In this document: in pieces, positions 27,366-29,014 of the stretch
Position numbering within the stretch: the first letter of the stretch is position 1
Layout of the letters: each line of letters starts with the position of its first letter
NCBI GenBank assembly: GCA_964416635.1
Contig: CAYQEY010000001.1
Span: 12,871-76,870, forward strand
Direction of reading: 5' to 3'
Length of the DNA stretch: 64,000 nucleotides
DNA from: an uncultured Lachnospiraceae bacterium
Lineage (GTDB): Bacteria > Bacillota > Clostridia > Oscillospirales > CAG-272
Made by a program: the position numbers and the translations under genes
Notes under the pieces: generated by a model
What the model was told of the DNA's origin: nothing
The model's database searches: none
The model's input: the letters and a program-made list of their open reading frames with translations, nothing else

Positions 27366-28049
27366 ATGGACAACAAAGAACTTTTTGATATAGTGCAGGA
27401 TGCTCTTAACGATTCGGAGCTTAAAAGCGGAGATATCCCGAATATCGACCTCTACGTGGACCAGATAATAAACCTCATTGCCGAAAAGTTGGCAGAGGGG
27501 TCAGAGAGATACCGTGAAAGACATCTCACAAAAACCATGATAAACAACTATTCCAAGGATGGAATTATAACCCCCGTCAAAGGAAAGAAATACAATAAAG
27601 AACAGATTTTGCAGATGCTCACTGTCTACACTCTCAAGGGAACGCTGTCGATAGGAGAAATAAAGCGTCTTTTACAGGGTGCGTATTCGGTTGAAGGATT
27701 TGACGGAGAGGCGTTGAAGGAGCTTTACGACAAGCATCTCGATATAAAGGACGTGAACAGAGAGTACGCCGTAAATGCACTCGACGGAATAGTCGAGCGC
27801 AACGGTTTTGACATAAATAACGACGTCGATTATATCAGCACTGTCTGCGCACTTGTTTCACTCAGTGCACAGCTCAGAAACATAGCGCAAGCCATGATAG
27901 ATGCAAAATTCCCGGAGCCGGAGGAGCCCGAGGAAGAGGATAAGGACGGCGAAAAGGCGGAACGCAAAGAAGAAAAGAAGGCAGAGAAGGCAGAGCGCAG
28001 GGAAGAAAAGAAGCAGAGAAAAGACGAAAGGAAGTCTAAAGAAGAATAA
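27366..28049 (+). CDS. DUF1836-family protein with a K/E-rich tail
   Basis: DLYVDQIINLI...HLTKTMINNYSKDGIITPVKGKKYNKEQILQML resembles DUF1836. The last ~45 aa are low-complexity E/K. Confidence 0.6.
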   Translation: MDNKELFDIVQDALNDSELKSGDIPNIDLYVDQIINLIAEKLAEGSERYRERHLTKTMINNYSKDGIITPVKGKKYNKEQILQMLTVYTLKGTLSIGEIKRLLQGAYSVEGFDGEALKELYDKHLDIKDVNREYAVNALDGIVERNGFDINNDVDYISTVCALVSLSAQLRNIAQAMIDAKFPEPEEPEEEDKDGEKAERKEEKKAEKAERREEKKQRKDERKSKEE

Positions 28050-28095
28050 AAAAATGATACGGTTTACGCTCCTTCTCATAAGAAAGTTATAATCC

Positions 28096-28120
28096 CGTAG
28101 GGCGGGGCTTACTCCCGCCG
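28096..28120 (+). repeat. REP-like hairpin element, copy A
   Basis: CGTAGGGCGGGGCTTACTCCCGCCG. Differs from copy B by one missing G and one G-to-A change. Internal GGCGGG/CCCGCC stem. Confidence 0.8.
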
Positions 28121-28131
28121 CCATACAAATT

Positions 28132-28167
28132 TCGGCAGAGATATTGTTTTCTCTGCCGATTTGTGTT
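28132..28167 (+). terminator. Terminator after the DUF1836 gene
   Basis: TCGGCAGAGA (28132-28141) pairs with TCTCTGCCGA (28150-28159), followed by TTTGTGTT. Confidence 0.75.
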
Positions 28168-28313
28168 ATAATGGGGTGGGTGATGAAAATGGATGAGAAA
28201 AACAAATTACCGAAACGAAAACATCCTCGTCTTGACAATTATGATTACAGCTCCGCAGGCGCATATTTTGTAACGATTTGCACACAAAACAGACGGTGTG
28301 TGCTATCTCGCAT

Positions 28314-28339
28314 CGTAGGGCGGGGGCTTGCTCCCGCCG
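28314..28339 (+). repeat. REP-like hairpin element, copy B (inside the RAYT coding sequence)
   Basis: CGTAGGGCGGGGGCTTGCTCCCGCCG. Encodes VGRGLAPA. Confidence 0.85.
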
Positions 28340-28486
28340 AAACAACAGGGGTAAAATACACCTCATTCTGAGAGATTGCAGAGAAACAATTATTCTTGCT
28401 GGAAGACCGATATCCCTATCTTGCGGTTGATCGATACGTAATCATGCCAAACCATATACACGCAATTGTAATTTTGAACGGAGAGG

Positions 28487-28512
28487 CGGCGGGAGCAAGC
28501 CCCCGCCCTACG
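28487..28512 (-). repeat. REP-like hairpin element, copy C (inverted, inside the RAYT coding sequence)
   Basis: CGGCGGGAGCAAGCCCCCGCCCTACG is the exact reverse complement of copy B (26/26), 147 bp away. Encodes AGASPRPT. Confidence 0.85.
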
Positions 28513-28783
28513 GTCACGGATATCGTTTGCACATATAAATCGTTAACAACAAGAGAATGTAAAAAGAACGGATTTGACGGAAAATTGTTTCAGACCTCAT
28601 TTTATGAGCATATAATTCGAGGTCGAGAAGATTACGAGGAAATCGCAAAATATATTTACGAAAACCCTATCCGTTGGTACTACGACGAATTATACACCGA
28701 AGAATAGGGGTATGGGCTTTGCCCGATGCCTTTTGTAATACAAAGGCGAAACTTGCGATAAAATAGAAATATGAGGTGTAGAG

Positions 28784-29014
28784 ATGAAGATGTGGAAAGA
28801 AAAAACGTGGCAATATGAAATTACAGGTGTAGATGGGAATACATCATTGTTTGGAGTAAATATCTTTGATTATCATTGGAATTTTATAAAGAGTGAGGCA
28901 ATAAAAGAACAAATCATCGATATTTATTCGGCTGTAATTAATGACATTGAGCATGTTTTCGGAGTGCGTGAAGTAAGCAACTGCGTATGGGAATTCTATC
29001 TATTTAAATACTAA
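28784..29014 (+). CDS. Hypothetical small protein in an AT-rich segment
   Basis: 76-aa ORF after GAGGTG, followed by a strong terminator. No motif recognised. Confidence 0.4.
   Translation: MKMWKEKTWQYEITGVDGNTSLFGVNIFDYHWNFIKSEAIKEQIIDIYSAVINDIEHVFGVREVSNCVWEFYLFKY

Follow-up and report, generated by a model that had tools for sequence, protein, structure and literature searches.

A 64,000-nt stretch of DNA from an uncultured Lachnospiraceae bacterium (contig CAYQEY010000001.1; hereafter the window, within which all coordinates are numbered) carries a transposase-like gene with two copies of a short palindromic repeat inside its coding sequence, one on each strand. With a probability of roughly 75%, this locus is a REPtron: a single chromosomal gene for a REP-associated tyrosine transposase (RAYT), an endonuclease-ligase of the HUH/Y1 type acting on single-stranded DNA (ssDNA), together with its cognate repetitive extragenic palindromes (REPs), two of which lie within the open reading frame (ORF). 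REPs rank with the most abundant repeats of bacteria, and the long-term matching of RAYTs and REPs is still debated. In-frame REPs inside RAYT genes have been published for the TnpA_Y1 subclass 2.4 (Quentin, Siguier, Chandler and Fichant 2018, BMC Genomics 19:475; PMC6006769), so an earlier note on this DNA, made from the sequence alone, did not hold where it assumed that REPs normally only flank RAYT genes. The locus is a Clostridia example of these in-gene REPs. The comparative data sharpen the oddity of the arrangement: the REPs have fixed positions on both sides of the catalytic motif, one per strand, follow the protein in its inheritance, are frozen in their synonymous positions and persist after loss of the gene.

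Identity of the gene and of its repeat

The ORFs 28144-28371 and 28396-28707 share a common frame and are separated solely by the TGA at 28369-28371. Their joined translation bore out what the earlier note had described, including the retention of the HUH motif and of the C-terminal tyrosine region (Table 1). A family profile built from 76 diverse members matched the Escherichia coli TnpA_REP (4ER8) at E = 4e-14, whereas IS200/IS605 transposases were found at about 1e-3 (2XM3, 2F4F and 2EC2 at 6.5e-4 or worse). The AlphaFold2 model of the protein, with a mean predicted local distance difference test score (pLDDT) of 91.6 and a core from beta1 to the Tyr helix at residues 26-167, likewise gave 4ER8 as its best Foldseek match, with a template modelling (TM) score of 0.61-0.64. 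Together with the Y---NP motif these matches support a RAYT-like and not an IS200-like gene, which had also been the first assignment.

The family is large, with 6,931 relatives at E <= 1e-5 and 21,335 clusters at 50% identity and E <= 1e-3. Across 80 aligned loci its motifs were NH[IV]H, WQ (71/80) and YIxxNP. In E. coli TnpA_REP the GTAG foot of the REP is contacted by W94, Q95, W99, E100, H101 and R104 (Quentin et al. 2018; PMC6006769). The segment FQTSFYEHIIR of the window protein aligned with E. coli WQPRFWEHAIR, keeping Q, E, H and R and replacing W94 by F and W99 by Y, so that four of the six contact residues are retained. The motifs and the anatomy of the REPs suggest that the gene is a member or a close neighbour of TnpA_Y1 subclass 2.4, which equals group 4 of Bertels and for which the signature NH[IFV]H / WQ / YIxNNP and a core enlarged to about 146 aa are given (PMC6006769 Table 1). 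RAYTs of group 4 evolve slowly, are vertically inherited and are flanked by only modestly abundant repeats (Bertels et al. 2017), which agrees with the low REP density observed here.

The repeated unit has a GTAG foot and, after it, a short GC hairpin. As the earlier note had it, the two internal copies, termed arm 1 and arm 2, are complementary in 26 of 26 nt at a distance of 147 nt and encode the peptides VGRGLAPA and AGASPRPT. The near-identical third copy, upstream of the gene, is in the same orientation as arm 1, from which it differs by one deleted G and one G>A exchange, and its local ssDNA hairpin was calculated at -7.3 kcal/mol. The conserved unit is 25 nt long, GTAGGGCGGGGGCTTGCTCCCGCCG (28315-28339); the C at 28314, which lengthens the palindrome to 26 nt, is variable in homologues. 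With up to three mismatches allowed, the 26-mer occurred in the window at these two sites only, and it had no match in 100 dinucleotide-preserving shuffles of the window. The hairpin pattern GGCGGG-N4-14-CCCGCC was present exactly three times in the 64 kb, always at the RAYT gene, against 0.01 occurrences expected. Altogether the locus holds three clear GTAG-foot palindromes and one degenerate one. A chance palindrome was rejected on the shuffles, on the count of the hairpin pattern in the window and on the occurrence of the unit across genomes.

For the last point, genomes, one per species, were scanned with the pattern GTAGGGCGGGG(N0-1)CTTRCTCCCGCC. Among the matches listed, to which the following counts refer, the 24-nt core was present in at least 119 genome stretches of Oscillospiraceae, Acutalibacteraceae, Ruminococcus, Faecousia and other Clostridia, and several genomes carried the REP on multiple contigs. 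Only 10 of 155 exact copies lay inside a detectable homologue of the gene; the other 145 were outside any homologue, in unrelated flanks that had nothing but the unit itself in common. Long open frames held 43% of these outside copies in comparison to 89% of random positions. The repeated unit, initially called REP-like, is thus a true REP. Other GTAGGG-hairpin types were located nearby in the same genomes. An inverted partner was found within 110 nt of 35 of the 145 outside copies. Such doublets recall REP doublets forming hairpins (REPINs), reportedly described by Bertels and Rainey in 2011 as inverted REP doublets that RAYTs mobilise as a unit. The spacers of the dispersed doublets were mutually unrelated, and a REPIN master-copy model was rejected for this reason.

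The anatomy of the unit corresponds to the published subclass 2.4 example GTAGGGACAGACTTTATGTCTGTCC, whose foot is GT[AG]G and whose stem has G-C pairs at its base (PMC6006769), and the same two features were observed in all 30-odd arm types of the family. Exact copies of the Clostridia REP were also met in two assemblies labelled Alphaproteobacteria (L015, JAWXUC010000004.1) and Bifidobacteriaceae (L055, CAVIFY010000006.1), which could be due to binning contamination or to horizontal transfer. In a further stretch (L006:5276-5293) a run of N separated two identical REP copies with identical flanks, indicating an assembly gap at a REP array.

Family-wide inheritance of the internal REPs

The alignment of homologous genes, set as a test by the earlier note, showed the inverted pair in homologues, with the two peptides co-varying as coding by reverse complements predicts. 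In this arrangement the first and second codon positions of either arm lie opposite the second and first of its partner, and the wobble positions face each other. A reverse-complement peptide score of at least 6 was reached by 42 of 106 full-length representatives and by none of 1,060 residue-shuffled controls. The compensated peptide pairs, of which there were more than 25 different ones, include VGEGLAPP/GGASPSPT, VGAGLCSAR/RAEQSPAPT, VGVGALDDP/GSSRAPTPT and VGEDIILP/GKMISSPT. With more than 30 co-varying pairs of enzyme and REP, the family constitutes a natural data set for the specificity code of REP recognition.

On the level of DNA, an inverted repeat straddling the HUH motif was present in 39 of 83 loci analysed, with spacers of about 127-220 nt, most often 140-150 nt. 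Arm 1 was in all these loci a sense-strand GTAGGG foot with a hairpin, the stems being lineage-specific. The opposite-strand placement of the two REPs results in the perfect inverted repeat around the HUH-coding segment. In the window and in four other loci (L082, L087, L116 and L109) the arms were identical base for base, while the proteins outside the arms shared 43-58% identity. Wobble positions at conserved residues were identical in 15-16 of 16 cases within the arms in comparison to 40-53% in the rest of the gene. Judged by these comparisons, the arms are held at the DNA level and not through the protein.

In the structural model, arm 1 corresponds to the tip of a beta-hairpin that follows beta1 and precedes the first long helix, and arm 2 to the loop that leads from the HUH strand (beta3) into helix alphaC. 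The latter loop was modelled as a peripheral extension by Quentin et al. (2018; PMC6006769). Loops with REPs and loops without had median lengths of 31 and 29 aa at one site and of 28 and 27 aa at the other. Given these near-equal lengths, the REPs replace loop residues, and a simple insertion model was not supported. VGRGLAPA and AGASPRPT are probably by-products of this DNA. For annotation purposes, the internal REPs explain the recurrent VG...P and G...PT peptides in these proteins.

A neighbour-joining tree was built with the arm regions masked. It placed the repeat-less loci in a separate large clade and the repeat-bearing loci in another clade with scattered losses, so that the internal REPs are found in one clade comprising about half of the sampled family. 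Close relatives have their REP type in common, and the types track the protein clades. This distribution fits a single ancient acquisition, placed where a large clade originates, after which the REPs co-diverged with the protein, as is reported for cognate REPs and RAYTs, and occasionally decayed.

The differences between the arms point to the unit that is selected. Three inter-arm differences were compensated within their own hairpin, namely G:C to C:G in L142, A:T to T:A in L176 and A:T to C:G in L177. Inter-arm mismatches comprised 12 G:T and 15 A:C, hence no excess of G:T. Because compensation takes place within arms and G:T is not in excess, selection probably acts on each single REP hairpin and not on the pairing of arm with arm. 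The architecture of REPs within a RAYT gene, as proposed in the earlier note, was supported, but the evidence favours two individually kept hairpins over an obligatory mutual pair. Self-recognition, autoregulation and use as a recombination substrate, which that note raised, are candidate functions. Four family members (P0123, P0136, P0170 and P0254) possess arm 2 only.

Competing readings of the arms and of the in-frame TGA

If the locus is a REPtron, the internal REPs would be bona fide binding and cleavage sites of the enzyme, like the flanking REPs of classical REPtrons. With one REP per strand, one of them would always be exposed on the lagging-strand template, and their position inside the ORF would render enzyme and substrate genetically inseparable. 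The family-wide anatomy makes the action of a RAYT on sites in its own gene directly testable.

Several observations weigh against this reading. A general scan of the 64-kb window revealed no further convincing GTAG-foot hairpin unit, and copies of a gene's own arm were rare in the flanks of most homologues, even over 10 kb on each side. Among curated family models, Pfam Y1_Tnp (PF01797) remained below threshold with 18 bits against a cut-off of 23, as did NCBIfam REP_Tyr_transpos (NF047646) with 62.5 bits against 80, in searches with a query that carried an X at the stop codon; members of other subclasses probably made up the training sets of these models. In the sub-clade of the window protein WQ is replaced by FQ, and the placement with subclass 2.4 is suggested by motifs and REP anatomy, not by a reference-sequence tree. 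That deeply diverged genes share an identical 24-mer could alternatively stem from repeated replacement out of a shared or horizontally spreading REP pool. Binding and cutting of the internal copies by the enzyme is a step that we infer.

A more far-reaching version holds that the internal pair is an ancient, obligatory cis-element of the whole RAYT clade, with one substrate copy per strand on the two sides of the HUH segment, with specificity and REP co-inherited and co-evolving, and with the dispersed REPs and short doublets seeded from the gene, as at L005, where only a doublet is left of it. We put this forward tentatively and regard it as rather doubtful. If true, it would describe a mobile-element system that keeps the template of its repeat inside the coding sequence of its own mobilising enzyme.

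The internal REPs may instead be passengers, repeatedly inserted or gene-converted into two permissive loops and refreshed from the dispersed pool, with no role for the gene. Turnover from such a pool would explain why arms are identical to dispersed copies and among genes with only 43-58% protein identity. The number of intragenic REPs does change, as seen from tandem REP-containing units in the beta3-alphaC loop of P0001-P0003, P0007, P0008 and L109, and the orthologous locus L005 has a different REP type at the upstream site. REPs inside unrelated genes have been reported (PMC3733652), and insertion into the RAYT gene is implied by the wording "insertions" that Quentin et al. (PMC6006769) used for in-gene REPs. 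However, both arms are fixed in position, orientation and frame across dozens of REP sequence types, and the near-equal loop lengths of REP-less relatives leave no empty site. The confinement to one clade and the REP type following the protein tree indicate inheritance and not repeated capture; moreover, few or no copies of the own arm are available within 10 kb of most homologues. Passengers are therefore an unlikely explanation.

The complementarity of the arms, perfect here and in many homologues, raises the question of a joint function as a long-range stem of about 26 bp around the HUH-coding segment in mRNA or ssDNA, which would either throttle expression through RNase III or a block of translation, or serve as a REPIN-like substrate. 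Transposases are commonly held at low expression, and the 226-nt segment folds into a long stem of -49.4 kcal/mol (z = -6.45), compared to -7.3 to -8.4 kcal/mol for the local hairpins. Yet complementarity arises automatically from two opposite-strand copies of one REP, and the arm differences in L142, L176 and L177 retain the local hairpin while breaking the pairing between arms. Selection for RNA pairing predicts an excess of G:T over A:C, contrary to the 12 and 15 counted, and the members with arm 2 only speak against the stem as well. Two mismatches in 26 would leave the stem standing; these data weaken a joint function, which we consider quite improbable as the reason for the pair. Within the REPtron reading, a long-range stem of the arms may still dampen expression, although the covariation pattern does not require it.

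The TGA at 28369-28371 aligned with a near-invariant Gly in the motif FG[EK]IAE of 19 close homologues, which were drawn from 120 retrieved sequences, most of them intact with a length of 172-174 aa. At this codon GGA is present in the closest homologue for which DNA was available, and GGT or GGG in others. No stop was present at this codon in any other examined sequence, and none of the sequences retrieved started or ended at this position in a way that would suggest a recurrent stop. Many long ORFs of the window are normal under the standard code. Because homologues have GGN, the stop is not recurrent and the standard code reads normally, the TGA is best explained by a single G>T nonsense change (GGA to TGA), which would make the gene either a very recent pseudogene or the subject of a base-call error. 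Of the two options of the earlier note, fresh inactivation was thus supported, with the base error as its alternative, and read-through gained no support. Decoding of the TGA by read-through, as selenocysteine or under an alternative code, with a gene functional as it stands, is highly improbable: TGA is read as Gly in genetic code 25 and aligns with a Gly here, but the long standard-code ORFs, the GGA, GGT and GGG of homologues and the lack of a recurrent stop oppose it, and no selenocysteine insertion sequence (SECIS) or other Rfam element was found near the gene (27900-28900). Recoding was rejected on these grounds.

Least credible of all is a DNA inversion switch with the arms as crossover sites and the 147-bp HUH segment flipping the transposase off and on, for which the perfect 26-bp inverted repeats and a spacer divisible by three can be quoted, but in which the inverted frame stops about 23 codons past arm 1 (minus-strand ORF 28416-28532) and gives a truncated product, no invertase gene is adjacent, and no inverted variants occurred among the sequences found, the last being a weak point as the search favoured intact genes.

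Related systems, variant loci and layout of the locus

With the published subclass 2.4 RAYTs the family shares the HuH motif NH[IFV]H, WQ, a YIxNNP-like Y motif and the enlarged core. Common to both are also GTAG-foot REPs with a GG-initiated stem, flanking as well as in-frame in the variable beta3-alphaC loop, short tandem repeats at that place, slow evolution, vertical inheritance and probably a low copy number and modest repeat abundance. In contrast, the publication describes neither a second fixed copy on the opposite strand before the HUH motif nor covariation or conservation at wobble positions. Its hosts are mainly Cyanobacteria and Bacteroidetes, whereas the present clade stems from gut and rumen Clostridia and the window sub-clade has FQ. 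No mention of RAYT-internal REPs was found in searches of Di Nocera (2013) and Bertels et al. (2017), and a literature search on the present family in Oscillospiraceae retrieved nothing relevant. The in-gene arrangement is known for the subclass, while the family-wide anatomy was not found in the literature read on RAYTs and REPs.

The E. coli TnpA_REP (subclass 2.2, 4ER8) is the best match by profile and fold and resembles the window protein in its HUH motif, in the single Tyr in a Y---NP helix, in the Q, E, H and R foot contacts and in inverted GTAG-foot REPs at the gene. It differs in that all E. coli REPs are extragenic and longer, with bulged stems, and that by profile alignment its beta3-alphaC loop is six residues shorter and the post-beta1 beta-hairpin is unaligned; the window protein, furthermore, falls below the NCBIfam REP_Tyr_transpos cut-off.

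TnpA of IS200/IS605 (subclass 1.1) recognises hairpins in ssDNA and has the same HUH/Y1 fold. Unlike these elements, the present gene encodes Y---NP and not Y---Q, and its hairpins are placed on opposite strands, whereas those of IS200/IS605 are both on the top strand at the ends. A tnpB partner is missing, the neighbouring ORFs of 227 aa and 76 aa not being TnpB-sized, and the orthologous chromosomal locus in another species misfits a hopping insertion sequence.

REPINs and the present arrangement share two inverted REPs. Short-spacer doublets exist among the dispersed copies, and the doublet at L005 derives from the intragenic pair by deletion. Unlike in REPINs, essential coding sequence makes up the 147 nt between the intragenic REPs, the spacers of dispersed doublets are unrelated and compensation occurs within the arms.

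The orthologous locus (L005:2440-2800, minus strand) was identified in a Eubacteriales metagenome-assembled genome of another species and corresponds to window 28040-28765. The block 28125-28172, with hairpin and promoter element, is 100% identical and the downstream flank homologous. All three coding segments are deleted at L005, leaving a REP, 25 nt and an inverted REP; the degenerate hairpin 28704-28730 is also retained. At the site of the window's upstream REP, L005 carries two REPs of another type as a doublet, GTAGGGGCGATCATTGATCGCCCG ... GGGCGACCAATGGTCGCCCCTAC. As far as this alignment of the two loci indicates, the REPs outlive the gene.

Two to four in-frame tandem copies of a 26-aa (78-nt) unit were present in P0001-P0003, P0007, P0008, P0016, P0020, P0113 and L109:5741-5842. 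The unit lies in the beta3-alphaC loop and begins at the arm 2 REP, NEAAGASPRPTIMDIVCAHKSLTTRE; the arm 1 unit is duplicated in P0005 and P0022. Either REPs are hot spots of tandem duplication or these units are assembly artefacts at repeats. For annotation, such genes have to be regarded as hot spots of small duplications, deletions and mis-assembly.

Individual loci showed further rearrangements. In P0163 a deletion extends from arm 1 to just beyond arm 2 and has removed the HUH motif, in P0173 loss of the 22-nt hairpin of arm 1 causes a frameshift, in P0269 a deletion enters arm 2 in another frame, and in P0130 the 218-nt unit that reaches from the upstream REP as far as arm 1 is duplicated in tandem. 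Five tandem REPs with a period of 42 nt (L104:5256-5447) are situated just 3' of a 55%-identical homologue with a decayed arm 2, the arm 1 variant GTAGGGCGGGGGTTTACTCCCGCC and an extra copy of the arm 1 peptide encoded upstream. A 45%-identical homologue at L108:1259-1880 is split over two frames and likely a pseudogene; its REP type flanks the gene in inverted orientation (1259, plus; 1857, minus), as in the classical REPtron layout, and is not located inside the gene. At L133:8412 and L162:977 the stop codon is exactly where a further REP of the gene's own type begins. In the family, stop codons that are supplied or overlapped by a REP foot may be common.

The features of the locus are compiled in Table 1. 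The start codon of most homologues corresponds to the second ATG, at 28189. A consensus scan found no full sigma-70 promoter upstream of the RAYT gene; the scan was silent on TGTTATAAT, a probable extended -10 element, because a -35 match is lacking.

Table 1 Features of the RAYT locus in window coordinates
Feature	Position	Strand	Basis or remark
Upstream REP copy	28096-28120	+	Foot (GTAG) at 28097; GGCGGG/CCCGCC hairpin; about 65 nt upstream of the start codon
17-bp inverted repeat, bidirectional terminator-like hairpin	28125-28166, core 28132-28159	none	Separates the upstream gene from the RAYT promoter region
Probable extended -10 promoter element TGTTATAAT	28164-28172	+	Read by eye; directly after the terminator-like hairpin
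RAYT (TnpA_REP-like HUH/Y1) coding sequence	28183-28707	+	174 codons, one TGA inside
Arm 1, in-frame sense-strand REP, encodes VGRGLAPA	28314-28339	+	Inverted-repeat search
In-frame TGA in place of a near-invariant Gly codon	28369-28371	+	Homologue alignment
HUH motif (His-Ile-His)	28453-28461	+	Within the 147-nt segment between the arms; NHIH at 28450-28461
Arm 2, in-frame antisense-strand REP, encodes AGASPRPT	28487-28512	-	Inverted-repeat search
FQTSFYEHIIR, aligned to the GTAG-foot-contacting region of E. coli TnpA_REP	28588-28620	+	Profile alignment; PMC6006769
Y motif YIYENP (class 2 signature Y---NP), catalytic Tyr codon 28651-28653	28651-28668	+	PMC6006769 Table 1
Degenerate REP-like hairpin, also terminator-like	28704-28730	+	ATAGGGG foot overlaps the TAG stop; stem GGGC/GCCC

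A comparison of the region 27900-28900 with Rfam gave no known RNA family; Acido-1 was the sole match, at 18 bits (E = 0.75) where the gathering score is 50. In the upstream 227-aa ORF (27366-28049), the C-terminal tail, rich in Lys and Glu, contains a 33-nt direct repeat, 73% identical, at 27934-27999.

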